A stretch of 16,625 nucleotides of DNA from a virus (Duplodnaviria > Heunggongvirae > Uroviricota > Caudoviricetes), in IMG/VR virus record IMGVR_UViG_2778261459_000008. The stretch is one strand, 5' to 3'. Made by a program: the position numbers and the translations under genes. Positions 1,499 through 16,625 of this stretch are shown piece by piece; within the stretch, counting starts at the first letter, position 1; the number at the start of each line of letters is the position of its first letter. Under the pieces are notes generated by a model. It saw only the letters and a list, made by a program, of their open reading frames with translations, ran no database searches and was not told the DNA's origin.

Positions 1499-2383
1499 TT
1501 ACTTTGTAATGAGATCGGGGTCAACTTCGCTTAACCGGCTTCGTTTTGACAGGTTGCCGGTCTTTCTTTTTTTCACTTTCGCCAGTTCTTCCGCAGAGTA
1601 ATGCGACGCGACATCCAGCCGTCGAAGCCCCATTTTGATGTACTCGCTGTTGATCTCAATACCAATGAATTTTCGTCCGCTGGCGATGGCTACGGCACCG
1701 GTAGTAAAGCTACCAGCAAACGGGTCGAGAACGATATCGCCTGGGTTGGAAGAGGCGAGAATAATGCGTTTCAGTAAGGCTTCCGGTTTTTGCGTCGGGT
1801 GGTTTTCATATTCATCCATCAAATAACGCACGCGCGGAAAATCCCAAACGTTACCCGGTACTTTTTGATGATTGTAAGGCTGTGGAGGATTTTTGCGATA
1901 ATCGATCAACGCGCGCTGCGATCCGGTTTTGGCTTCTACCAGAATAGCATCACCGTTGAATGTGTAGTTCTTTGCGTCTTTCACCATCATCAGGATGGGT
2001 TCGTACATGGAGCCGTAGTGTTTTTTCGCCTGCACTCCAGAACTGTCATATGACCAGACGATGCGACTTTTGATGGTAAAAAGCTTGCGGCACTGGAGAT
2101 CGATAAAGGGCATGTTTTCCGTACTGTTCATGATGTACATGCTGCCCTGCTTTTTCAGAACGCGGTGGCACTCTGCAATCACTTCAAACAGCCAGTCGAT
2201 AAACAGATCTTCTTTCCAGGCTTCGATCAGACCATCAAAATTTTTACCGATGTTATATGGTGGGTCGGCAAAGATCAGATCGACACTTTCGGCGGGGATC
2301 TTTTTAAGTTCGGCAAGCGCATCACCGTGAATAATGGTCTTAGCTTCATTACCAAACCGGGTCGGTTCACATCCTGTTCTCAT
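1499..2383 (-). CDS. yhdJ: N6-adenine DNA methyltransferase YhdJ
   Basis: Minus-strand ORF with DPPY motif (LIFADPPYNIG) and SAM-binding region (VLDPFAGSFTTG). The ATG at 2383 is preceded by GGGAG; the ORF-track start at 2389 is a GTG two codons upstream. Confidence 0.85.
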   Translation of the reverse strand: MRTGCEPTRFGNEAKTIIHGDALAELKKIPAESVDLIFADPPYNIGKNFDGLIEAWKEDLFIDWLFEVIAECHRVLKKQGSMYIMNSTENMPFIDLQCRKLFTIKSRIVWSYDSSGVQAKKHYGSMYEPILMMVKDAKNYTFNGDAILVEAKTGSQRALIDYRKNPPQPYNHQKVPGNVWDFPRVRYLMDEYENHPTQKPEALLKRIILASSNPGDIVLDPFAGSFTTGAVAIASGRKFIGIEINSEYIKMGLRRLDVASHYSAEELAKVKKRKTGNLSKRSRLSEVDPDLITK

Positions 2384-2406
2384 GGTCACTCCCTTTGTGA
2401 CACCTA

Positions 2407-2670: not shown

Positions 2671-3894
2671 ATGGCTGGTGGAACGAACAAATTAAGCGAT
2701 ACATCGCTTCGTAAAATGCTGGGAAGGGAGAGCCCCGGAGACAGCTTCTATGCTGATGGCGATGGGCTAAGTGTGAAGGTGTCCAGATCGGGCGTGTTGA
2801 CTTGGTATTTCACTTTCCGCATAGGTGGCCGGGAATCAACATCTCAGCGTATAAAGCTGGGTAATTATCCAGACCTTTCACTCAAAGCAGCTCGTGAGAA
2901 ACGAGAGCAGTGTCGCGCATGGCTCGCAGAGGGAAAGAATCCAAAGCACCAGTTGAGCGTTACGACTCAGGAAACGTTAAAGCCGGTGACAGTCAGGGAT
3001 GCCCTTGAATACTGGATCAGGGAATATGCCACCCATAACCGCGCTAATGTTGAAAAGCACATTGAGCAGCTCAATAAGCATATCTTTCCTTATATAGGTA
3101 CTTATCCGCTTTCTATGTGTGAAACTCGCCACTGGCTGGAATGTTTCGCCAGGGTAAGGAACGAAGCGCCTGTAGCGGCTGGCTATCTTTTGCAGATGTG
3201 TAAGCAAGCACTCAAGTTCTGCCGGGTTCATCGGTATGCGGTGAGTAACGTCCTGGACGATCTGACCATTGACGATGTTGGACGTAAACAGAATAAGCGG
3301 GACAGGGAGCATACCCGGCAAGAACTTGCTGATATATGGCGAGAATGCTCAGGCCTGAAATTTAAGCCCTACTACTCAGCTCTATTACGTCTGCTGGTGG
3401 TGTTTGGCTGCCGAACTCAGGAGCTGAGATTATCTCGCGTAACCGAATGGGATCTAAATGATTGGGTTTGGACGGTACCTAAAGAGCACAGCAAAGGTGG
3501 TGAGAAAATACTACGGCCTATTCCCGTAGATATTCGCCCATTTATCAAACAGCTTTTAGAGCAGCACCAAAGCACAGGGCTATTGCTGGGAGAGATAAAG
3601 AAACCGGAAGCTGTCAGTCAGTGGGGAAGGATGTTGTATAAGCGTCTGGGCCACTCTGAACCGTGGACGCTTCACGATTTACGCCGTACATTTTCCACGA
3701 CTCTGAACAACATGGGAATTGCTCCGCATGTTGTCGAGCAGCTTCTGGGCCATGCGCTGGGCGGTGTCATGTCCGTATATAACCGCAGTCAGTATTTACC
3801 TGAAAAGCTGGATGCACTGAATAAATGGATGCAGAGATTAGATGTTATTACCTCTGATATCTCAAATGTTACTATTCTTGAGGTCGCAAGATGA
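2671..3894 (+). CDS. int: tyrosine site-specific integrase (P4/CP4-57-like phage integrase family)
   Basis: 407-aa ORF; N-terminal DUF4102-like arm-binding region (GLSVKVSRSGVLTWYFTFRIGGRESTSQRIKLGNYPDLSLKAAREKREQCRAWLAEGKNP); C-terminal catalytic signature (HDLRRTFSTTL ... LGHALGGVMSVYNRSQY); SD GAGG 8 nt upstream of the ATG. Confidence 0.9.
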   Translation: MAGGTNKLSDTSLRKMLGRESPGDSFYADGDGLSVKVSRSGVLTWYFTFRIGGRESTSQRIKLGNYPDLSLKAAREKREQCRAWLAEGKNPKHQLSVTTQETLKPVTVRDALEYWIREYATHNRANVEKHIEQLNKHIFPYIGTYPLSMCETRHWLECFARVRNEAPVAAGYLLQMCKQALKFCRVHRYAVSNVLDDLTIDDVGRKQNKRDREHTRQELADIWRECSGLKFKPYYSALLRLLVVFGCRTQELRLSRVTEWDLNDWVWTVPKEHSKGGEKILRPIPVDIRPFIKQLLEQHQSTGLLLGEIKKPEAVSQWGRMLYKRLGHSEPWTLHDLRRTFSTTLNNMGIAPHVVEQLLGHALGGVMSVYNRSQYLPEKLDALNKWMQRLDVITSDISNVTILEVAR

Positions 3895-4811: not shown

Positions 4812-4848
4812 AATGCTCTCGAACCCTAGCGAACGAGAGCATTTTTTT
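4812..4848 (+). terminator. rho-independent terminator after the 280-aa gene; its T-tract runs into the alpA start codon
   Basis: AATGCTCTCG (4812-4821) pairs with CGAGAGCATT (4834-4843), followed by TTTTTTT and then ATG at 4849. Confidence 0.65.
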
Positions 4849-5058
4849 ATGAACAATATTAAACAATCCCAGCAGCCAGCAGAAAGAGTTATCCGTGAGG
4901 CTGAGTGCCGGCAGCTAACCGGTATTTGTCGAACCACTCGATACATGATGGAAAAAGAGGGGAGCTTTCCCGCCCGCCGCAAGCTGGGAGGTCGTGCTGT
5001 TGGTTGGCTTCTGTCTGAGGTCACAGCATGGCAGCAGAGCCGCAGCAAAGCAGCGTGA
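4849..5058 (+). CDS. alpA: AlpA-family phage/island transcriptional regulator (excisionase-like HTH)
   Basis: 69-aa product MNNIKQSQQP...CRQLTGICRTTRYMMEKEGSFPARRKLGGRAVGWLLSEVTAWQQ carries the AlpA signature (LTG.sR.T.Y....G.FP....LGGR.VGW...E...W). Start at 4849 chosen over the upstream in-frame ATG at 4813 by length similarity to AlpA; no clear SD for either. Confidence 0.8.
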   Translation: MNNIKQSQQPAERVIREAECRQLTGICRTTRYMMEKEGSFPARRKLGGRAVGWLLSEVTAWQQSRSKAA

Positions 5059-5399
5059 GGGGTGGGAAATGTCACATAAAACAAAAGCGGCCATGCAGGG
5101 CCGCCAATGTCACTACCAAAAACTTAAGCAAAGTCAGGATACCAGGGTTAATGCTAGTGGTCAAAGCCAGAGCGCTGCTGGGATTAAAGGAACTGCGGCA
5201 TTGGCGCACACCCTATTTCCCCAAATCTGGGGAGAACTGGATCATCATGCGGGGTGTGCTGCAATGCAGCATACCCCGGAGAAATCCCGTAGTTTCGACA
5301 AATACCCAGATATTGGGTGTTATGGCCTGCATAAAATCACACCTGCGGTTCTTATTCCTGTCCCCGGCTCTTCTTTAGCTCATTTGCAATGGCGGATAT

Positions 5400-5654
5400 T
5401 TAATCACGTGGTAACCAGCCTTTCGCATTCCTTTTGGGGATTGGAAGGTTCTTTTCCTTCAAAATACGTAAAATGGCAGGTTCTGAATGTGGTCCCCAAC
5501 CATCCCAATTACCTTCCCAACAGTCGTTACAGCAGAAAGCCCTACCGTATAATTGCAGTACACGTCCTTGGTAAAGGTCTGGGCCAAATCGTGTTTCTGA
5601 TCCACAGACTTCACATGTGCAATAAAAATGCCCTTTCTCATCTATGCGCATCAT
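5400..5654 (-). CDS. hypothetical Cys-rich small protein (putative zinc-binding), second gene of a two-gene minus-strand operon
   Basis: Product MMRIDEKGHFYCTCEVCGSETRFGPDLYQGRVLQLYGRAFCCNDCWEGNWDGW... contains C-x-C-x2-C and CC-x2-C clusters; GAGGA sits 5 nt upstream of the ATG at 5654; it lies 1 nt downstream of the stop of the upstream RHH gene. The ORF track extends it to a TTG at 5666. Confidence 0.5.
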   Translation of the reverse strand: MMRIDEKGHFYCTCEVCGSETRFGPDLYQGRVLQLYGRAFCCNDCWEGNWDGWGPHSEPAILRILKEKNLPIPKRNAKGWLPRD

Positions 5655-5667
5655 CTTCTTCCTCAAA

Positions 5668-5877
5668 TCAACCTTTTGGTTCTATTCCTTGCCGACGCAA
5701 TTCCGCGCGAGCTAATTCTTTTATCCAATTACCAAGACTTACGCCTTCGCGCTCCGCTGCATCGTTCAGTTGCTGGCGTAGATCAGGGTTGATTCTGATC
5801 TGGAAAGTAGGTGACCAGCCATCACCTTTAGGGGTTTTGTCTCGTTTAATTGTTGACACGTACGTACATAACCTCAT
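5668..5877 (-). CDS. ribbon-helix-helix (CopG/Arc/MetJ-like) DNA-binding protein; start codon uncertain (ATG at 5877 or GTG at 5859)
   Basis: The C-terminal 45 aa (SPTFQIRINPDLRQQLNDAAEREGVSLGNWIKELARAELRRQ) has the beta-strand plus two-helix pattern of RHH repressors. The ORF-track N-terminal extension to 5970 is merely the translation of the palindrome and is unlikely to be coding. Confidence 0.55.
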   Translation of the reverse strand: MRLCTYVSTIKRDKTPKGDGWSPTFQIRINPDLRQQLNDAAEREGVSLGNWIKELARAELRRQGIEPKG

Positions 5878-5904
5878 AGCATGTATTTTGTTATGTACGT
5901 ACGT
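5858..5904. promoter_or_regulatory. perfect 15-bp inverted repeat (ACGTACGTACATAAC, 17-bp spacer, GTTATGTACGTACGT): candidate operator in the divergent control region
   Basis: Read directly: 5858-5872 is the exact reverse complement of 5890-5904. It lies between the minus-strand RHH gene and the plus-strand replication operon starting at 5993; TTGACA is at 5852-5857. Confidence 0.6.
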
Positions 5905-6603: not shown

Positions 6604-6968
6604 TCAGCAATGTGAAGTTTTACGAGCTGGCTAAGCGCGTTGATCTGCTGGTTGAAAAGGTTTTGCATCTTGAGGCACAGGTTAAGTCACTCACTGATAG
6701 TCAGGGGGGGGAAATCCCTCCGGGTATGACGCCAGTAGCAACACTGGCCGCTGAATACGGTATCTCAACCAATAAGGCTGAGGAACTGGCGAAAAACACA
6801 GGGGTGATGCTGGTTAAGCTGAAATCTGGCGGGTTCGTTGCACCTGATGAAAAGTTCAGGGAAGCGGCGCGTCTGGTGCTGCGCAGCGCTAAGCGCAAAT
6901 ATGGCTCTGCGTACTGGTTCCATCCTCTGATCGGCAAATTCCAGATGAGCGGGGGCATTCCAAAATGA
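6600..6968 (+). CDS. hypothetical protein, 122 aa, translationally coupled to the helicase gene
   Basis: ATG at 6600 with GGGAGG 8 nt upstream; ATGA overlap with the downstream gene at 6965-6968; no recognisable motif. Confidence 0.55.
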   Translation: MISNVKFYELAKRVDLLVEKVLHLEAQVKSLTDSQGGEIPPGMTPVATLAAEYGISTNKAEELAKNTGVMLVKLKSGGFVAPDEKFREAARLVLRSAKRKYGSAYWFHPLIGKFQMSGGIPK

Positions 6969-8329
6969 CGGTACAACTGACAGCTGTAGAAACCGTTTCT
7001 GATGCCCTGTTCACCTGTTCGTATCTGTGGGCGCACGGCAAGCAATACAGTCGCAGCGATTTGGATAAAGCGCTCCACCAGCATAAGGACCCCACTACCC
7101 GTTACGGAAAGCTGGTGGCTCGCCTCAACCAGATAGCAGCAATGCCGTATGAGGAACTCTGTGATGCCGGATATCTCGATACGGACCGCAAACAAATGAT
7201 TACAGCGCGGCGTTCTGTGCTGGTGGAAGAGATAGGCGAAGGGGAAATGAATGCCATGCTGTCTGACGTGCAGCGCATTCACCGGGTCTTCCCTGATGCT
7301 GGTGCAAAGTTCAGGACAAAGCTGCCTCTCTCTCGCGGTTCTGAGGGCTTTGATATCCGTCAGGACTATGTCCTTAAACACTTTCTGCCAGCGCAATCAC
7401 TGTGCAGCATTTACGGTCCCAGCGGTTCGTATAAGAGTTTTCTCGCTGTATCGTGGGCCTGTCACATTGCTGCGGGTCTGCCATGGGCTGGGAAGAAGGT
7501 CACTTCCGGCGCGGTGCTGTATGTGGTTGGTGAGGGGGGCGTAGGCGTTCCCCGGCGTATAAAGGCTTGGGAGCAGGTGCACGGCATACAGGCGGACAAC
7601 CTCTGGCTGGTCAATCGTCCGGTGTTTCCTGTGCGCGAGTCAGAGGTAACGGAAGTGCTTCTGGCTGCCAGACAGATTGAAGCTGAATGTGGTGTGCCGG
7701 TTCGCATGGTGGTGATCGATACGCTGGCCCGTTGTTTTGGCGGTAACGACGAGAACGATGCTCGTGATATGGGGGCATTTATTGAAGGGTGTGACGTTAT
7801 CAAACAGAAAACGGGTGCAACGGTGCTGATAGTTCACCACTCCGGCAAAGATGAAGGGAAAGGCGCTCGCGGTTCCAGTGCTTTCCGCGCTGCGCTTGAT
7901 ACTGAATTTAACGTTAAGCGTGAAGGGGATGGAAAGGCGCTTATTCTGACCTGTACCAAGATGAAAGACGCGGAGGAGCCAGAGCGTAAAGCGTATGACC
8001 TGAGAACGGCAGAGCTTTACACCGATGAAGATGGTGAGCTTGTTTGCTCTCTGGTTGTGCACGATCAGCCGAGAGAGGCTAAAGAGGTTGAGCCTGAACT
8101 GGCCAATGTCTCCCGTCTTAGCGATAACCACCATGCATTATGGCAGGCAGTACGCAGCCGCACAGCTAAGGGGGAGCCATGCACTATCTCCGTCATTAAA
8201 GATGATCTGCGTGCAACACTGGGGACAGATAAAGTGAGAAAGTCATTCTCGCGCTGGCTGGACAAGCTGGAGAGTGAGCAAATTATTCGCATCGAGGGTG
8301 AGAACCTTTACCCGGTAACAGTCGAGTAA
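6965..8329 (+). CDS. replication initiator/helicase, RecA-like AAA_25 (RepA-like) ATPase with predicted C-terminal winged-helix DNA-binding domain
   Basis: Walker A (IYGPSGSYKSF), Walker B-like (VRMVVIDTLARCFGG), HHSGKD motif; C-terminal about 90 aa basic and helical; immediately followed by iterons. Confidence 0.8.
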   Translation: MTVQLTAVETVSDALFTCSYLWAHGKQYSRSDLDKALHQHKDPTTRYGKLVARLNQIAAMPYEELCDAGYLDTDRKQMITARRSVLVEEIGEGEMNAMLSDVQRIHRVFPDAGAKFRTKLPLSRGSEGFDIRQDYVLKHFLPAQSLCSIYGPSGSYKSFLAVSWACHIAAGLPWAGKKVTSGAVLYVVGEGGVGVPRRIKAWEQVHGIQADNLWLVNRPVFPVRESEVTEVLLAARQIEAECGVPVRMVVIDTLARCFGGNDENDARDMGAFIEGCDVIKQKTGATVLIVHHSGKDEGKGARGSSAFRAALDTEFNVKREGDGKALILTCTKMKDAEEPERKAYDLRTAELYTDEDGELVCSLVVHDQPREAKEVEPELANVSRLSDNHHALWQAVRSRTAKGEPCTISVIKDDLRATLGTDKVRKSFSRWLDKLESEQIIRIEGENLYPVTVE

Positions 8330-8820: not shown

Positions 8821-10065
8821 TCAATAATTAAAGTGACTTTCAACTGAAAGTTGTTTGCAGCCCAATAATTTTAAAGCTTTTCGAATGTAATATAAAGCAG
8901 CGGTATTGTCGATAATGTAGCGGAAGGCTTCATTTTTATCTTGTTGTGCATCTCTTAAATTTCTTTCAAATTCTCTTTCATAATCTTCTGCGTAATATTG
9001 ATTGGATTGTCGGCCCATAATAATCAATGTGGTTAAATCTGCTAATTCTTCCTCTGAAAAGAGAGGTAGGTAAGTAGTGGTGATGCGCATTTTTAACCGT
9101 AGGTAGTCTAAAAAATCTTCTGCTCTGATATCGGATAAACTAATTCCTGAATCCTGTAGTGGGTCCAGAAATACGTTATTTTTTTTCATTACGTCTTTTA
9201 TATGTAGTGCGTACCAAGCTTTTTTAAAACGCAATAGTGTATTTTTCCCGCTATGTTTAAGTGGAAATTCAACGCCAATTAAAGATGATAGGTATCTATT
9301 TACAACAATTTTGTCGATTGCTTTTATAAGTTGTTTGTTGCTATTGAGATTAAATTTTTTCTTGATGAATTCCTTTTTTTTCACTGTAAGTGTAGTTACC
9401 CATTCATTTTTATTACCTAGAGCTTTTGAAAGCTTGATTAGATCACGGCGTGAAAATTTATCGGTATACGTACCTGTTTTATACTCATCTTTCAGATTTA
9501 GAGTGAGCTTAATTATTTCTCGCAAACCTTCCGTGAGCTTTTTGAAATAAACAACAAATCTTACAAGGTTAATGATCGGTGTTTTTTCCAAATGTGTCGC
9601 TCCGACATTGGACTCAGGGTATCTAAAAGTTTGTGCTGTGTCGTCTATAGCCACAAAGTCTAATATATAAGGCTCGATTTTTTTTGTAATGTGAAATAGT
9701 CGTATATCTGTCCTCTCAGCGACATCAATCGTGGCATCCCATAGTTTCTTGATGCTGTGGATTTTTGTCACATCAGGAACTGATATCGCCAATCCTCGGA
9801 GATCTGCCATGTCAATGAGGATAGTCTTTAGAGAAAGCTCAATTCCGTGCCTGGCAGAGTAGGCAATCGGATAAACAAGTAAATCAACTTCTCCTCTCTT
9901 GTTATTTTTGTATATATAGTCAGTAAGTATCTCTGGGGTTCTAAGGTAACCTTCAGCATAAGTTAATGAGTCAGGGAAACCATTCGTTCCGACGCAAGCA
10001 TTCAGCCAATCAAATCGACCATTGCCCAAACCAAAGGTGTTATTAAAGATTGTTTCTTTTTCCAT
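8821..10065 (-). CDS. hypothetical protein, 414 aa, AT-rich cargo gene on the opposite strand to the island backbone; candidate accessory/anti-phage function
   Basis: Uninterrupted minus-strand ORF with ATG at 10065 and AAGGA 8 nt upstream; markedly AT-rich versus flanking replication and capsid genes; no Walker, HNH, DPPY or other catalytic motif recognised. Confidence 0.7.
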   Translation of the reverse strand: MEKETIFNNTFGLGNGRFDWLNACVGTNGFPDSLTYAEGYLRTPEILTDYIYKNNKRGEVDLLVYPIAYSARHGIELSLKTILIDMADLRGLAISVPDVTKIHSIKKLWDATIDVAERTDIRLFHITKKIEPYILDFVAIDDTAQTFRYPESNVGATHLEKTPIINLVRFVVYFKKLTEGLREIIKLTLNLKDEYKTGTYTDKFSRRDLIKLSKALGNKNEWVTTLTVKKKEFIKKKFNLNSNKQLIKAIDKIVVNRYLSSLIGVEFPLKHSGKNTLLRFKKAWYALHIKDVMKKNNVFLDPLQDSGISLSDIRAEDFLDYLRLKMRITTTYLPLFSEEELADLTTLIIMGRQSNQYYAEDYEREFERNLRDAQQDKNEAFRYIIDNTAALYYIRKALKLLGCKQLSVESHFNY

Positions 10066-10312
10066 TAATCGATCCTTGCTTTGTAAATTATTTGTTCAAT
10101 GTCGTTCATTGCTGTTTGAATCAAAAAATACTCGTTTACATCAATAATTCAATATATATCTTAAAGAGTGGCACTCAGACGTGAGCCGCCACTGTTGCCG
10201 TCCGATCCCCTGCGCGATGCCGGGTTGATCTGCGAGATGCCGAGAGTGTCGGGCGGCGCTCCCTCCGTGTTGGTTTCACGTCCTGAATCTTAACCAATAC
10301 GAGAAAACCTTC

Positions 10313-11482
10313 ATGAAGAAATTAATCGAACTCCGCCAGCAAAAAACCGCCCTGAAAAACCAGATGCGATCCCTGCTGGAAAAAGCCGACAGTGAAAACC
10401 GCAGTCTGACCGATGACGAGGGCAAACAGTTTGATGAACTGCGTGCAAAAGCTGATTCCCTCGATACAGACATTTCCCGCCTCGAGTCTGTGGCTGATGA
10501 AGAACGCAGCAAGCCAGGAACGGGCATCCAGAAATTATCATCTGATGAATTGCGTAACTACATCGTAACCGGAGATGTGCGATCTCTGTCCACCAGCACT
10601 GACAGCGGCAGGGATGGCGGATATACCGTAATTCCTGAGCTTGATCGCGAAGTCATGCGCCAGCTACAGGATGACAGTGTTATGCGCGTGATCGCGACCG
10701 TGAAGACTGCAAAATCAAATGAGTTTCAGAAACTGGTTTCCACTGGCGGCGCAACTGTAGGACGAGGCACAGAAGGCAGCGCACGCAGTGAAACCAACAC
10801 CCCGAAAATTGAACGCGTAACCATCAAGCTGAATCCGATCTACGCCTACCCGAAAACCACGCAGGAAATCCTGGATTTTTCAGAGGTGGATATTCTGGGC
10901 TGGTTATCCTCCGAAATTGCCGACACGTTCGCCAGCACCGAAGAGGATGATTTTGTTAATGGCGACGGTAACGGCAAGCCGAAAGGCTTCATGGCTTACA
11001 CCCGTGCGGCGACCAGTGACAAAACCCGCGCTTTTGGCACCATTGAAAAAATGGTAGCGGCAAGTGGAACCGCCATTACAGCGGACGAACTGATCGACAT
11101 TCTCTACAAGCTGAAAGCGAAATACCGCAAAAATGCCGTCTGGGTGATGAACTCGGGCACGGCAGGGACACTACAGAAGCTGAAAAATGAGAACGGCGAT
11201 TATATCTGGCGCGACAGCCTTAAAGAAGGTGCGCCGGATATGTTGCTTGGTCGTCCTGTTTACTGCCTGGAGTCCATGCCGGACATCGGCGCAGGAAAAG
11301 CACCGCTAGCGGTTGGCGATTTCAGTCGTGGTTATTTCATCGTTGATCATGTAACAGGGATTCGCACCCGACCGGACAACATTACTGAACCCGGATTCTA
11401 CAAGGTCCACACGGATAAATATCTGGGCGGTGGTGTGGTGGATTCAAACGCCATCAAAATTCTGGAAATGAAAGCTGGCTAG
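10313..11482 (+). CDS. major capsid protein, HK97 fold, with N-terminal coiled-coil delta (scaffold) domain
   Basis: 389 aa; N-terminal about 70 aa is a charged coiled coil (LIELRQQKTALKNQMRSLLEKADSENRSLTDDEGKQFDELRAKADSLD); FVNGDGNGKPKGF motif typical of HK97-family capsids; strong terminator immediately downstream. Confidence 0.85.
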   Translation: MKKLIELRQQKTALKNQMRSLLEKADSENRSLTDDEGKQFDELRAKADSLDTDISRLESVADEERSKPGTGIQKLSSDELRNYIVTGDVRSLSTSTDSGRDGGYTVIPELDREVMRQLQDDSVMRVIATVKTAKSNEFQKLVSTGGATVGRGTEGSARSETNTPKIERVTIKLNPIYAYPKTTQEILDFSEVDILGWLSSEIADTFASTEEDDFVNGDGNGKPKGFMAYTRAATSDKTRAFGTIEKMVAASGTAITADELIDILYKLKAKYRKNAVWVMNSGTAGTLQKLKNENGDYIWRDSLKEGAPDMLLGRPVYCLESMPDIGAGKAPLAVGDFSRGYFIVDHVTGIRTRPDNITEPGFYKVHTDKYLGGGVVDSNAIKILEMKAG

Positions 11483-13313: not shown

Positions 13314-13608
13314 ATCCAGAATTACGCTTAATGAAGTAATGGCCCATCTTCGCCTTGATGATGATTTTTATGGTGAGGTTGAACTTCTGCAAATATATAC
13401 CGATGCGGCGCTGGAAGCCTGCCAGAAGCATATCGGGAAACGTTTTGAAGACGGCCTGGAATTTACCCCGGCAATACGTGTTGGTTGCCTGATGTACATC
13501 GCTTTTCTGTACGAGAACCGGGAAGCGGTTTCACCAGTTGAGCACTCGGAACTGCCTATGGCTATTTCTGCGCTCTGGTCGGTTTATCGTGATGTGGGGG
13601 TGTACTGA
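13306..13608 (+). CDS. head-tail connector / DNA-packaging protein (gp6-like)
   Basis: 100 aa from the ATG at 13306, overlapping the portal stop; N-terminal ITLNEVMAHLRLDDDFYGEVELLQIYTDAALEA pattern typical of gp6-like connectors. Confidence 0.7.
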   Translation: MSESRITLNEVMAHLRLDDDFYGEVELLQIYTDAALEACQKHIGKRFEDGLEFTPAIRVGCLMYIAFLYENREAVSPVEHSELPMAISALWSVYRDVGVY

Positions 13609-14048
13609 TGCCGTGGCAACCATTAAGGCGATGCACTGAGCCGGGCTGTAATAAGCGCGTGAAGTCCGGCAAGTGTGAAGAGCACAGGCGGGCTGCATGG
13701 CGTGCAGAGGATGCCAGACGGGGACACCGCCGCGCACGTGGGTATTCCCGACAGTGGGACAAATACCGCGCCCTGTACCTGAGCAAAAACCCGTTATGCG
13801 TGCGTTGTCTGGCTAAGGGTATTTATACACCAGCTCTTGTGGTGGATCACATCATTCCCATCAATGGCGGCGGTGATGTTCTCTTCTGGCCTGAGTGGAA
13901 TCACCAGGCATTGTGCCAGACGTGCCACAACCGTAAGACGACACGGGAAGATCCAGCCACGAAAGCAAACCGTAAAGCGGGCATGTATCGCGAGCAGGAA
14001 GAACGGGCGGCACACCGTAACGACTGGATGTATGGCGATGATGACTGA
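13608..14048 (+). CDS. HNH endonuclease (packaging-associated)
   Basis: 146 aa; CxxC ... DHIIP ... H ... CQTCHNRK zinc-finger HNH signature; start overlaps the connector stop (TGATG). Confidence 0.85.
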   Translation: MPWQPLRRCTEPGCNKRVKSGKCEEHRRAAWRAEDARRGHRRARGYSRQWDKYRALYLSKNPLCVRCLAKGIYTPALVVDHIIPINGGGDVLFWPEWNHQALCQTCHNRKTTREDPATKANRKAGMYREQEERAAHRNDWMYGDDD

Positions 14049-14217
14049 ACAGGAGCAAACCAGGCTGATACGTGGACTGATAAGGCAGCGTGACACATGG
14101 AAGACACAGGAGACAGAGCACAAAGCCAACAGGACAGGGCGCACAAAACGCACCACAGCGAAGCGATTAACCGACCGTGACCGCGAGGTCATGGAATGTT
14201 TTCGCAATCGCTGGTGA
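14041..14217 (+). CDS. possible small basic protein, 58 aa, overlapping the HNH stop; uncertain
   Basis: ATG at 14041 in an ATGA-type overlap with the HNH stop; product MTEQEQTRLIRGLIRQRDTWKTQETEHKANRTGRTKRTTAKRLTDRDREVMECFRNRW; no clear SD. Confidence 0.3.
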   Translation: MTEQEQTRLIRGLIRQRDTWKTQETEHKANRTGRTKRTTAKRLTDRDREVMECFRNRW

Positions 14218-14336
14218 GGCCGTCAGAGGGGGTGGGGGTGGTTTTCAGGACGAAACCGTCCCTGCCGGACACCGACCGCCCCCTCAAATTTTTGTGCACG
14301 GTAATTTTTTTGAAAATAATTGGGCGAAAAAAGAAC

Positions 14337-14693
14337 ATGGCAAGACCACCAAAAGCCCCCGCTTACCTGGATGAAATCGCGGTCAGGCAGTGGAAGGAAA
14401 AATCGCGCCAGCTTTCCGGGCGGGAAGACCTTACCCCCGCCGACTGGAGCAATCTGGAACTGTATTGTGTTAACTACTCCATATACCGCAAAGCCGTCGA
14501 AGACCTTGCGACGCGCGGGTTCAGCATTGTTAACAGTCAGGGCAGCGAGAGCAGAAACCCCGCACTGAGCGCAAAGGCTGACGCAGAAAGAATAATGATC
14601 AAAATGGCTTCTTTGCTGGGTTTTGACCCGGTAAGCCGTCGCAGAAATCCACCGGAAACAGAGGAAGAGGACGAACTTGACCGCCTGGCATGA
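14337..14693 (+). CDS. terminase small subunit (P27-family-like)
   Basis: 118 aa from the ATG at 14337 (MARPPKAPAYLDEIAVRQWKE...), an N-terminus typical of P27-type TerS; lies directly upstream of and overlaps TerL. Confidence 0.75.
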   Translation: MARPPKAPAYLDEIAVRQWKEKSRQLSGREDLTPADWSNLELYCVNYSIYRKAVEDLATRGFSIVNSQGSESRNPALSAKADAERIMIKMASLLGFDPVSRRRNPPETEEEDELDRLA

Positions 14694-16338
14694 GTACGCA
14701 GAAGGCGTAAAAAACGGCAAAATTACGGCCTGTAAACGACTGAAACAGGCCGTTAAACGGTATTTTTCTGACCTTGAAAACTCCCTTTACACGTTCGATC
14801 CGGAGGTCGTGGAGCGGTTTATTGCCTTTTCCCGGGTGTGTCCGCACGTAAAAGGCGCAATGCGCGGTAGTCCCATTGAACTGGAGCCGTGGCAGCAGTT
14901 CGCCTTTGCCTGCATCCTGGGCTTTAAGGTTAAGGCCACCGGACGGCGCAAATACACCAGCGCATTCATTGAAGTACCGCGAAAAAATGCCAAATCCACG
15001 GTCGCCGCTATCCTGGCTAACTGGTTTCTGGTTATGGAAAACGGGCAGCAGGATATTTACACCGCCGCCGTGAGTCGTGATCAGGCGCGGATCGTGTTTG
15101 ATGATGCGCGTCAGATGTGCCTTTTATCCCGACCGTTACGAAAGCGGGTAAATATTCAGGCGCACAAGGTGATACACCCGAAAACCAACAGCCTGTTAAA
15201 GCCACTGGCAGCAAAAGCGGCAACCATTGAGGGGACAAACCCGAGTCTTGCCATTGTGGATGAATATCACCTGCACCCAGACAACGGGGTTTATTCCGCA
15301 CTTGAGCTGGGGATGGGGGCGCGTCCGGAGGGGCTGTTATTTGCCATCACCACATCGGGGAGCAACGTTGTTTCAGCCTGTAAACAACACTATGACTATT
15401 GCTGTCAGATACTGGATGGTGAAGAGATGAACGAATCCATGTTCGTTCTGATTTACGAGCTGGATGATGAAAGCGAGGTTGACGATCCGGCGATGTGGAT
15501 AAAGGCGAATCCAAATATCGATGTTTCCGTCGATCGTGAAAAACTGGCCTCAACCATCCAGAAAGCGCGGGGTATTCCGTCGCAGTGGGTGGAAATGCTC
15601 ACCAAGCGATTCAATATCTGGTGTCAGGGGGCTACGCCGTGGATGGGTAACGGTGCATGGGCGGAGTGCGCCGGAACGTTCGCGGAGGCGGATTTATACG
15701 GGCAGGAGTGCTACGCGGGGCTGGACTTATCATCAACCAGCGATATTTCCAGCGTGTGCTATGCCTTTCCGGTCGGTAAAAAGATTATGCTGGTTTCCCG
15801 TCACTATCTGCCGGAATTTCAGCTACAGAACCCCGCCAATAAAAACCGCGCCATCTATCGCCAGTGGGTAAAGGCGGGCTGGATACGCACAACACCGGGT
15901 GACTGCATTGATTATGACCGTATCCGTGATGACATCATGGCGGATGCAGAGAATTTCAATATCAGGCTGGTGGGCTTCGATACATGGAACGCCACGCACC
16001 TGAGGACGCAGCTACAGGGGGCAGGATTTGAGGTGGAGCCGTTCCCGCAAACATACCTTCGTTTCAGTCCGGCGGCGAAATCGTTCGAAGTTTTTGTTAA
16101 CCGGAAGGTGATTGTGCATCGTGGTGATCCGGTGCTGGCCTGGTCAATGAGTAATGTTGTGATGCAGAGTGACGCGAACGCCAATATCAAGCCGAACAAG
16201 AAAAAATCATCCAACAAGATAGACCCGAGCGTTGCGGCGCTGATGGCGTTTGGCACATTCCAGGCAGAGCATGAGGAATTTGCATTTGATATGAGCGACA
16301 GCCACAAAGAGCGACTTGCGGCGTTTGATGGGGTATGA
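14677..16338 (+). CDS. terminase large subunit (ATPase/nuclease)
   Basis: 553 aa; apparent TTG start at 14677 with AAGAGG 6 nt upstream (no in-frame ATG/GTG until about residue 61); Walker A-like VPRKNAKST; acidic nuclease-domain motifs; 16-nt overlap with TerS. Confidence 0.85.
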   Translation: MTAWHEYAEGVKNGKITACKRLKQAVKRYFSDLENSLYTFDPEVVERFIAFSRVCPHVKGAMRGSPIELEPWQQFAFACILGFKVKATGRRKYTSAFIEVPRKNAKSTVAAILANWFLVMENGQQDIYTAAVSRDQARIVFDDARQMCLLSRPLRKRVNIQAHKVIHPKTNSLLKPLAAKAATIEGTNPSLAIVDEYHLHPDNGVYSALELGMGARPEGLLFAITTSGSNVVSACKQHYDYCCQILDGEEMNESMFVLIYELDDESEVDDPAMWIKANPNIDVSVDREKLASTIQKARGIPSQWVEMLTKRFNIWCQGATPWMGNGAWAECAGTFAEADLYGQECYAGLDLSSTSDISSVCYAFPVGKKIMLVSRHYLPEFQLQNPANKNRAIYRQWVKAGWIRTTPGDCIDYDRIRDDIMADAENFNIRLVGFDTWNATHLRTQLQGAGFEVEPFPQTYLRFSPAAKSFEVFVNRKVIVHRGDPVLAWSMSNVVMQSDANANIKPNKKKSSNKIDPSVAALMAFGTFQAEHEEFAFDMSDSHKERLAAFDGV

Positions 16339-16625
16339 CGAGAATGACTGAAACTGATCTACTAAAAATAATTCGCCGCATTACCGGAATCAGTCAGCAG
16401 CCTGACGAACAGGCTACACAGCCGGACAGCGTGATAGCCGAAAATTACGCGCGTGTGGTGGCTGAGGTGATGCGCCGTGACGGTATTGAGCTTAACGGCG
16501 TGGATATGCGCAACATACGAACCAGAGTCCTTGAGTTGCTGGCATACCGTCGCCGTTCTCAACAACGGAGGGAGAGCGCGAAAAATACTTACCAGTGGAA
16601 GAAGCCGGAACGACTGCGGCGGTAA
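16335..16625 (+). CDS. hypothetical protein, 96 aa, downstream of TerL (possibly a head-completion/packaging accessory protein)
   Basis: ATG at 16335 overlapping the TerL stop (ATGA); stop at 16623-16625; no recognisable motif. Confidence 0.5.
   Translation: MTRMTETDLLKIIRRITGISQQPDEQATQPDSVIAENYARVVAEVMRRDGIELNGVDMRNIRTRVLELLAYRRRSQQRRESAKNTYQWKKPERLRR

Follow-up and report, generated by a model that had tools for sequence, protein, structure and literature searches.

We analyzed a 16,625-nt stretch of DNA from IMG/VR virus record IMGVR_UViG_2778261459_000008 (referred to here, at its full length, as the window). The window is an Escherichia coli capsid-forming phage-inducible chromosomal island (cf-PICI), a phage satellite, located between yhdJ and fis. 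An earlier note on this DNA had described a GC-rich hairpin and a 15-bp direct repeat at positions 10168 to 10300, and it had proposed that this segment was a late promoter for the head operon or a packaging (cos) site. The hairpin and the repeat were located in the 247-bp gap between an accessory gene and the major capsid gene. Our analysis indicated that the segment was probably the transcribed 5' leader of the cf-PICI capsid and packaging operon, acting as a folded RNA, and the role of the leader would most likely be post-transcriptional control of capsid expression (i.e., control of translation or stability). The fold was well supported by the comparison of homologous leaders, and the conserved RNA, which matched no known family, is a candidate for a new RNA family.

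Comparative evidence for a folded leader RNA

Relatives of the window were gathered as E. coli matches of falling similarity, as 80 loci from other species that were found via the capsid protein, and via exact-motif scans of IMG/VR. About 107 distinct homologous leaders were compared, and covariation was tested on a 42-sequence alignment (A2). Of 5426 complete E. coli genomes, 168 had homologous DNA, which was in every case chromosomal, and such DNA was also found in more than 130 IMG/VR contigs. The 247-nt intergenic query was 100% identical to DNA of E. coli HZ13, and the leader carriers spanned many Enterobacterales genera.

A first alignment of four elements revealed an invariant box, the -35 and -10 elements, an invariant hairpin, an unconserved stretch that contained the repeats, and a conserved CCCUCC...GGUUUCACGUC block, in that order. 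The covariance model that was built from the alignment (R1) yielded one match per element, on the plus strand and only before the capsid gene. The model found the leader in the window and in 22 of the 80 species-level loci, and the leader was missing from the other 58. In IMG/VR, the copies were always 118 to 144 nt upstream of the capsid ATG, in agreement with the location just before the capsid gene that was originally described. The same description placed a GC-rich segment in AT-rich DNA. The segment itself was indeed GC-rich (61.7% at 10168 to 10300), and AT-rich DNA was present on the upstream side (25.5% GC in the promoter region at 10066 to 10167 and 34.8% in the accessory gene) and not on the downstream side, where the packaging operon had a GC content of 52.7%. 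Thus, the segment was located at the border of an AT-rich cargo gene and a head module of ~52% GC.

The leader was 145 nt in length and contained three hairpins, which we designated H1, H2, and H3; their coordinates are listed in Table 1. H1 corresponded to the hairpin GTGGCACTCAGACGTGAGCCGCCAC that had been described, and it was predicted to fold with a 5-bp outer stem and a 4-bp inner stem. The predicted folding energy of H1 was -11.4 kcal/mol (z = -2.6), and 2 of 200 shuffled sequences folded equally well. In the alignment, 99.7% of the H1 cells were paired, and compensatory changes were observed in three of the nine pairs. Because H1 was unchanged between elements with capsid proteins that were only ~69% identical, it seemed that the leader was under selection. 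Single-base variants of H1 at G30, C27, and G28, which are located in the loop and the arm, were absent from our IMG/VR scans.

Pairing was conserved in a different manner in H2. Compensatory changes were observed in 10 of the 11 aligned basal pairs, with up to four types of base pair per position, and 88% of the cells were paired. When the whole tested structure was considered, 91% of the cells were paired, compared to 32 to 46% when the partners were slid, and none of the 500 shuffles reached the observed covariation. Moreover, RNAalifold recovered H1 and the base of H2 de novo when no structure was supplied, and 12 of the 18 pairs were compensatory. When the distinct H2 sequences were folded alone, 93 of 94 (all except L156) formed a long stem that closed the hairpin at this position, although the H2 stems of L158 and L016 were weaker or shifted.

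The H2 sequences formed several unrelated classes. In the commonest class, H2 was a three-way junction with two tandem small hairpins that had G-N-G-A-N loops. Hairpin 2a was GCUGC-GAGAA-GUAGC or a longer form, and hairpin 2b was CUGC-GAGAG-GCAG; 93% of the 2b cells were paired, and compensatory changes were present. The direct repeat was located in this part of the fold, each copy being in a sub-hairpin inside H2 (Table 1), and the three-way-junction fold of the window was no more than 1 kcal/mol from the minimum-energy fold of H2. The two copies were as originally described (CTGCGCGATGCCGGG and CTGCGAGATGCCGAG, with 13 of 15 positions matching and a 20-nt spacing), and a 13/15 match was reached in 0.8% of 1000 dinucleotide-preserving shuffles of positions 10168 to 10300. 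Other leader classes had a single hairpin in place of the repeat pair. The same apical module was found in an element (L213) with another H1 class and another H2 basal stem, which suggested that the module moves by recombination. As judged from these sequence comparisons, the direct repeat is two tandem GNGA-loop hairpins in H2 that are restricted to a lineage, and it is a feature of the RNA and not a pair of DNA operators.

This result bears on the proposal that an activator of the late promoter binds DNA at the two 15-bp repeats. Copies spaced by 20 bp are offset by about two helical turns, the match was rarely produced by chance (the 0.8% noted above), and the region does control the head operon, all of which would be in line with activator sites. 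However, the repeats were positioned 42 to 76 nt downstream of the conserved -10 element, within a stem that contained covarying pairs, and a better candidate for an activator site was found upstream at a fixed distance. The repeats were also missing in most of the relatives that shared the promoter, H1, and H3. When conservation was examined, the hairpin was found to be kept nearly base for base, and the 15-nt repeat was found in one sub-lineage only, with unrelated sequence in the other relatives. Since pairing that is kept without the sequence being kept is the signature of a folded RNA, we concluded that the repeats were not protein-binding DNA repeats, and we consider a function as activator sites very unlikely.

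We also looked for coding potential and for known RNA families. A leader peptide, in the form of a 41-codon frame starting at the GTG of H1, was rejected: the 3' anchor was found in all three frames (in 40, 32, and 35 leaders), and stops were present in more than half. No reading frame was conserved across the leader, which indicated that it was non-coding. A search of Rfam 15 yielded no match to the window at the gathering thresholds. When E values up to 10 were allowed for positions 10050 to 10400, the only matches were to three small nucleolar RNA models on the opposite strand, with scores of 16 to 17 bits versus thresholds of 36 to 50.

H3 and a possible long-range helix

The third hairpin, H3, had a z score of -3.6, and none of 200 shuffled sequences folded equally well. 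Its inverted repeat was located at 10266 to 10275 and 10292 to 10301. In most relatives, H3 was formed by GGUUUC(A)CGU and ACGGAAACC, which was located just before the AUG, and 97% of the cells were paired.

The 5' arm of H3 is the invariant UUUCACGUCU, and its complement was found in the loop and 3' arm of H1 (AGACGUGAG); 97% of the cells paired in the corresponding long-range helix. In addition, a three-way association linked an inner pair of H1 to a base of the downstream strand. In the order 5' arm, 3' arm, and downstream base, 95 leaders had A/U/A and 12 had C/G/C, and the long-range pair changed from U-A to G-C. The downstream A-to-C change was not explained by H3, because the changed base was bulged in H3. 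The complementarity between H1 and GGUUUCACGUC, together with this one three-way covariation, suggested a two-state switch.

We scanned IMG/VR with "not-consensus" IUPAC patterns for additional variants of the long-range pairing. The GGUUUCACGUC strand had no variants with G or U, and where independent covariation was sought, in GGUUUCNCGUC and in the loop and arm of H1, there were zero or unrelated matches only. These empty scans pointed to strong constraint, but the evidence for the long-range helix still came from one clade. Forcing the helix cost 2.6 to 7.8 kcal/mol over the minimum in a folding model that does not allow the outer stem of H1 to be retained as a pseudoknot, and the default fold (H1, H2, and H3) was the minimum-energy fold in all four of the leaders that were folded in full. 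We also searched the rest of the window for sequences that could pair in antisense with GGUUUCACGUC or with the 5' arm of H1, and the matches were at the level of chance.

Some of these properties might be accounted for by a passive stabilizer or processing signal that involves no switch. Specifically, H1 would block decay that depends on the 5' end, the H2 duplex would be an RNase III site, and the complementarity between H1 and H3 would be incidental or tertiary. The position of H1 at the predicted +1 and the default fold of the four fully folded leaders would suit such a signal, as would H2, in which shape and length were kept and the sequence was free, as a structure-specific nuclease would require. 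The invariant and mutually complementary H1 loop and GGUUUCACGUC, the three-way covariation, and the conserved GNGA loops of H2 would have no explanation, however, and we consider it unlikely that the leader is a stabilizer or processing signal and nothing else. A stabilizing or RNase III role does agree with many of the observations, and the leader might have such a role in addition to a switch.

A non-homologous structured leader was observed ~135 nt before the capsid ATG, with the same type of promoter, in some Xenorhabdus and Photorhabdus cf-PICIs (L043, L063, and L067). The 5' strand of this leader, CAUGUAGG, pairs with CCUGCAUG or with the Shine-Dalgarno-adjacent CCUACAUG, and a central GC hairpin is followed by a C-rich tail. 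Most of the other Xenorhabdus elements had a short AT-rich leader that lacked a Shine-Dalgarno sequence. We counted the two-partner logic of the non-homologous leader as a parallel that supports the switch.

Predicted promoter and upstream box

A scan for promoters identified TTTACA-16-TATCTT at 10135 to 10162, with 9 of 12 matches and a 16-nt spacer. When 124 distinct upstream regions were compared, the T, the A, and the final T of the -10 hexamer were invariant (TAnnnT, at -11 to -6 relative to H1), which fits a sigma-70 -10 element as expected. GTTT(A/T)C was kept at -34 to -29 in both types of upstream region. These two types differed in the spacer, which was A-rich in the window and had an unrelated form, a terminator-like hairpin plus a T run, in many relatives. 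In the latter type, the terminator-like hairpin overlapped the -35 element; the distance from the upstream box to the -10 element was fixed in both types. Based on these elements, the capsid operon appears to have a weak promoter of the sigma-70 type. Because the -10 element and the box keep fixed distances across relatives, transcription is predicted to start at 10168 to 10170, in the first bases of H1. A start at or before 10168 would fit the covariation of H1 position 1 with position 25 (G-C to A-U, in six leaders).

The 18-nt core of the upstream box was unchanged in four divergent elements, and of the 124 distinct upstream sequences, 117 had TGTAAA at a constant position, -86 or -87 relative to the first base of H1. 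The box provided the first two units of a phased series: TGT-containing units recurred every ~10 to 11 bp from -86 down to the -35 region (10080 to 10130). No second copy of the box was found near alpA or elsewhere in the window. We propose the box as a candidate for the site of an activator, or for an architectural site, in the promoter of the capsid operon. In this respect, the late-promoter proposal was partly borne out. The region has the arrangement of an activator-dependent sigma-70 late promoter, with -10 and -35 elements before the operon and outside the flagged coordinates, and the TGTAAA box would be the upstream site at a fixed distance. The segment was thus part of a control region for the head operon, and it was the assignment of the hairpin and repeats as activator sites that did not hold.

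A model for leader function

In the model that we favor, a weak sigma-70 promoter behind the phased TGT array would drive transcription from about position 10168, which would place H1 at the 5' end of the mRNA. In the default fold, the mRNA 5' end would be protected and the initiation region would be masked or poorly accessible. In the alternative fold, the H1 loop and 3' arm would pair with GGUUUCACGUC and H3 would open, so that the two folds would be mutually exclusive. The choice of fold would then set the amount of capsid protein that is made after helper induction.

Several findings weighed against this model. The excess of G-U over A-C pairs was modest (30 versus 13), and the strand assignment came mainly from context. 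When the window sequence was considered alone, the z scores were -2.1 for the whole leader and -0.7 for H2. Compensatory changes were completely absent from H3. Furthermore, H3 takes another 3' partner (AACCAAUAC) in the sub-lineage of the window, and the GAGAAAA region is located at the foot of the stem and not inside it; masking of the ribosome-binding site would therefore be weaker in the window than in most relatives. The covariation in the long-range helix was from a single clade and may represent a single evolutionary event. In this model, the position of the start site, the existence of a switch and of a trigger for it, and any consequence for translation or stability are inferred; the start site and the transcription of the leader were deduced from the sequence alone, and no trigger for the switch was identified.

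We also advance, tentatively and as a possibility with less than even support, the idea that the leader is a new class of riboregulator by which a satellite licenses the synthesis of its own capsid. A helper or satellite factor, or co-transcriptional events, would open the terminal hairpin, and the released strand would lead to unmasking of capsid initiation. The scaffold would be the variable hairpin, with its three-way junction and GNGA loops. If licensing of this kind occurs, it would link helper infection to satellite morphogenesis at the RNA level, and the unrelated leader of the other cf-PICIs would represent the same logic reached by convergence. Our literature search yielded no paper on the promoter, leader, or cos site of this operon or on the timing or dosing of its capsid protein. 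What has now been defined is a testable control region, which consists of a repeat box, a weak promoter, and a strongly covarying leader with greater conservation than the capsid protein encoded after it.

Other roles considered for the leader RNA

Two stem-loops that begin at the 5' end of a transcript, after a promoter and before a long operon, are also the architecture of putL, and a mobile element with such an RNA would need no antitermination protein of its own. We therefore weighed whether the leader might be a put-like cis-acting antitermination RNA, with stem-loops that bind RNA polymerase for read-through of the 6-kb operon, and found this improbable. Covariance model R1 had no match in the full HK022 genome (L218) at E values up to 1, a test that was made in one direction. 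The sequence of H2 is free, whereas put activity depends on specific bases. No terminator-like site was found between the leader and the capsid gene, and terminator-like sites in the window were only modestly in excess of those in shuffled sequences (26 versus 17.2 +/- 4.0). Finally, a put-like function would not explain the complementarity to the strand beside the ribosome-binding site.

Two protein-dependent antitermination systems were rejected. In the case of N/boxB, the H2 loops were GNRA-like in appearance, but boxA was absent: no boxA (CGCUCUUA) was found 5' of H2 in the alignment, and there was only a C-rich tract 3' of H2, which was variable. The H2 sub-hairpins, which had 4- to 6-bp stems and G-N-G-A-N loops, were boxB-like in form only. 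A protein of 61 amino acids in the packaging operon (phrog_3173) has an apparently N-like, arginine-rich N terminus (QTR...WK), which was not kept among its homologues. In the case of AlpA as a Q-like antiterminator, the satellite AlpA was of the small, 81-amino-acid PF05930 type and not the larger Pseudomonas protein. The P. aeruginosa AlpA, in which the DNA-contact residues are 128 to 142, depends on a site between -35 and -10 and on a pause element, and neither was present here. No TAnnnT-like hexamer, which would be a pause signal of the Q/AlpA type, was found in the first 25 nt of the leader.

Homologues of the phrog_3173 protein were found in 19 of the loci with the leader, and the 58 leader-less loci had none. 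This distribution raised the idea of a small RNA that acts in trans, or of a binding platform for a satellite protein, formed by the leader or by an H1-H2 fragment processed from it. The candidate protein would be phrog_3173, and the sequence constraint on the apical GNGA loops and the H1 loop would agree with this idea. However, the co-occurrence followed phylogeny, and the protein was lacking in three leader-bearing elements (L005, L047, and L050). In addition, no complementary target was found in the window, and the phrog_3173 protein had no match in Pfam and no known RNA-binding domain. A role in trans or as a platform is accordingly highly doubtful.

The probable cos site

Cohesive ends are present in cf-PICIs, and the segment is GC-rich, structured, and next to the genes for morphogenesis. 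These properties would be appropriate for the cos site that the earlier note had suggested, which the satellite HNH, TerS, and TerL proteins would recognize. The remaining evidence spoke against this assignment, which we consider extremely unlikely. The leader was missing in the 58 of 80 related elements mentioned above, which had the same HNH, TerS, and TerL, and two elements with the same TerS protein (L002 and L003) had unrelated H2 sequences. Furthermore, the cos site of HK97- and HK022-type phages sits between hnh and terS, and the leader is located 4 kb before terS. The ends of the HK022 genome are just before terS and after the HNH end of the genome. When the leader was compared to the HK022 cos junction, the score of 21 was equal to the shuffle mean of 21.3, i.e., there was no similarity.

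Several findings pointed to the gap between hnh and terS. A block at 14271 to 14319 showed 79 to 90% identity in every cf-PICI group that we found, and it was also kept in leader-less Pasteurellaceae, Gilliamella, and Xenorhabdus elements. The block was present in nearly all loci that were long enough; the leader, which was found in 22 of 80 loci, was thus not a feature of all elements that share the terminase. The score of the hnh-terS gap against the HK022 end-to-end junction was 37, and shuffled sequences scored 17.6 +/- 3.4 (maximum, 34).

The leader was also found in three records that were deposited as phages. The one that we examined, LR881103.1 ("phage vB_KppS-Ant"), was a 16.5-kb linear record from induced particles and was a cf-PICI deposited as a phage. 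Its ends flanked the hnh-terS block and missed ~72 nt centered near 14286, the position predicted from HK022. As a pointer to cos, these ends are suggestive only, since the assembly method of the record is not known. The other two records, a 3.8-kb fragment and a 106-kb record, were outside this examination, as were the matches in plasmids. Taken together, sequence similarity and gene position suggest that the satellite cos is probably located in the hnh-terS gap at about 14230 to 14320 rather than in the flagged segment. This new placement is relevant for engineering cf-PICIs as DNA-delivery particles.

Gene order and features of the element

The features of the window are listed in Table 1. 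After the capsid gene, the order on the plus strand was prohead protease, portal, connector, HNH, a small open reading frame (ORF), TerS, and TerL. The same gene organization is known for the capsid-forming PICIs of Proteobacteria, which build their own heads and take tails alone from helper phages.

Table 1. Coordinates of genes, promoter elements, and leader features in the window
Feature	Positions	Strand	Description
yhdJ	1499-2389	-	Left flank of the genomic island; the fis side of the chromosome is opposite
int	2671-3894		Integrase; followed by a DUF6387 protein
alpA	4813-5058		AlpA-family regulator, 81 amino acids, PF05930
repA	6965-8329		RepA-type helicase
Accessory gene	8821-10065	-	AT-rich
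Upstream box	10080-10097	+	Conserved TTTGTAAATTATTTGTTC; first two units of the phased TGT series
-35-like element	10134-10140	+	GTTTAC; read as TTTACA in the promoter scan
-10 element	10157-10162	+	TATCTT; promoter scan and conservation
H1	10168-10192	+	Outer stem GUGGC/GCCAC, inner stem CUCA/UGAG, loop GACG; predicted 5' end
H2	10197-10257	+	Long hairpin; basal stem 10197-10206 with 10248-10257; hypervariable sequence
Repeat copy 1	10210-10224	+	In sub-hairpin 10208-10224, CCCUGC-GCGAU-GCCGGG, inside H2
Repeat copy 2	10230-10244	+	In sub-hairpin 10229-10243, UCUGC-GAGAU-GCCGA; aligns with 2b
Linker	10258-10265	+	C-rich, single-stranded GCUCCCUC; pyrimidine-rich unpaired tract after H2 in nearly all classes
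H3	10264-10304	+	Ends at the weak ribosome-binding region of the capsid gene
5' arm of H3	10272-10282	+	Invariant GGUUUCACGUC; complementary to H1 loop and 3' arm GACGUGAG
Major capsid gene	10313-11482	+	HK97 type; ATG at 10313; first gene of the operon
hnh	13608-14048	+
Small ORF	14032-14217	+	61 amino acids, basic, phrog_3173; overlaps the end of hnh
Probable cos	14230-14320		Core 14271-14319; hnh-terS gap; G-run, GACCGCCCCCTCAAA/TTTTTG, T-rich tract
terS	14337-14693	+	Terminase_4
terL	14677-16338	+

The product of the accessory gene (414 amino acids, ~35% GC in the gene) had only a weak C-terminal match to DUF3775. The slot upstream of the capsid promoter held variable cargo, and other elements carried unrelated genes in it, including a gene for a ProQ/FinO-family protein in L004. 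The ~600 bp at 5059 to 5667, between alpA and a minus-strand YlcI/YnfO-like gene, had no gene in the identical RefSeq record, contained long, spurious-looking ORFs only, and had no match in Rfam. The best promoter-like match of the window (10 of 12) was located here, at 5526 to 5553, and a second 10/12 site was located just downstream, at 5853 to 5882.

Two relatives were unusual in their placement. In E. coli 2014C-3075 (L004, positions 1 to 615 and 15682 to 16425 of the locus), a cf-PICI with the same leader had inserted into a resident prophage, within the gene for the large terminase. The insertion was co-oriented with its host sequence, which is the "helper-embedded" configuration that has been described for other PICIs. 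In Xenorhabdus kozodoii (L047, positions 3207 to 3364), the locus was retrieved through a capsid match, and a copy of the leader was found ~600 nt downstream of where this match ends, which suggests tandem or nested cf-PICI copies.

Comparison with known systems

Activator-dependent late promoters are known in other satellites, namely, Psid of P4, which is activated by Ogr/Delta, and operon I of the Staphylococcus aureus pathogenicity islands (SaPIs), which is activated by LtrC-type proteins. The control region that we describe resembled these systems in that a weak promoter precedes satellite morphogenesis genes and an upstream element is located at a fixed distance; this resemblance concerns 10080 to 10162 and not the flagged segment. 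Unlike in P2 and P4, the box was TGTAAAT-N4-TGTTC plus phased TGT units and not a TGT-N12-ACA dyad at about -55. With respect to packaging, the satellite was similar to HNH-dependent phages of the HK97/HK022 type in having the same set of HNH, TerS (Terminase_4), and TerL; unlike the leader, its cos-like block was located at ~14230 to 14320, 4 kb downstream.

Leaders with alternative pairings control the initiation of timing-sensitive phage genes in the lambda cIII mRNA and in phage Mu mom, in which a stem is opened by Com. As in cIII and mom, the capsid gene has a hairpin beside its initiation region, and pairing of one hairpin arm with a strand located upstream would give two exclusive folds. 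There was no sequence relation to either system, and no counterpart of RNase III or Com was identified. The competing strand of the cf-PICI leader differed in being locked in an invariant 5'-terminal hairpin, and the partners were separated by a hypervariable long hairpin. The likeness to putL of HK022 would be in the position of two stem-loops directly after the promoter, from the predicted 5' end of the transcript, in a mobile element of the lambdoid world. A put site is ~70 nt, and H1 plus H2 extend ~90 nt from the predicted +1. Unlike in putL, the second stem was free in sequence, and the leader extended to the ribosome-binding region.

The ompA 5' untranslated region has a stabilizing hairpin at the 5' terminus, and the early leaders of T7 and lambda are other examples of leaders with stabilizing 5'-terminal hairpins or processing by RNase III. 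Like these leaders, the cf-PICI leader has a hairpin at its predicted 5' terminus, and its long imperfect duplex is kept by shape and not by sequence. It was unlike them in that the loop of its invariant first hairpin was complementary to a conserved downstream strand.

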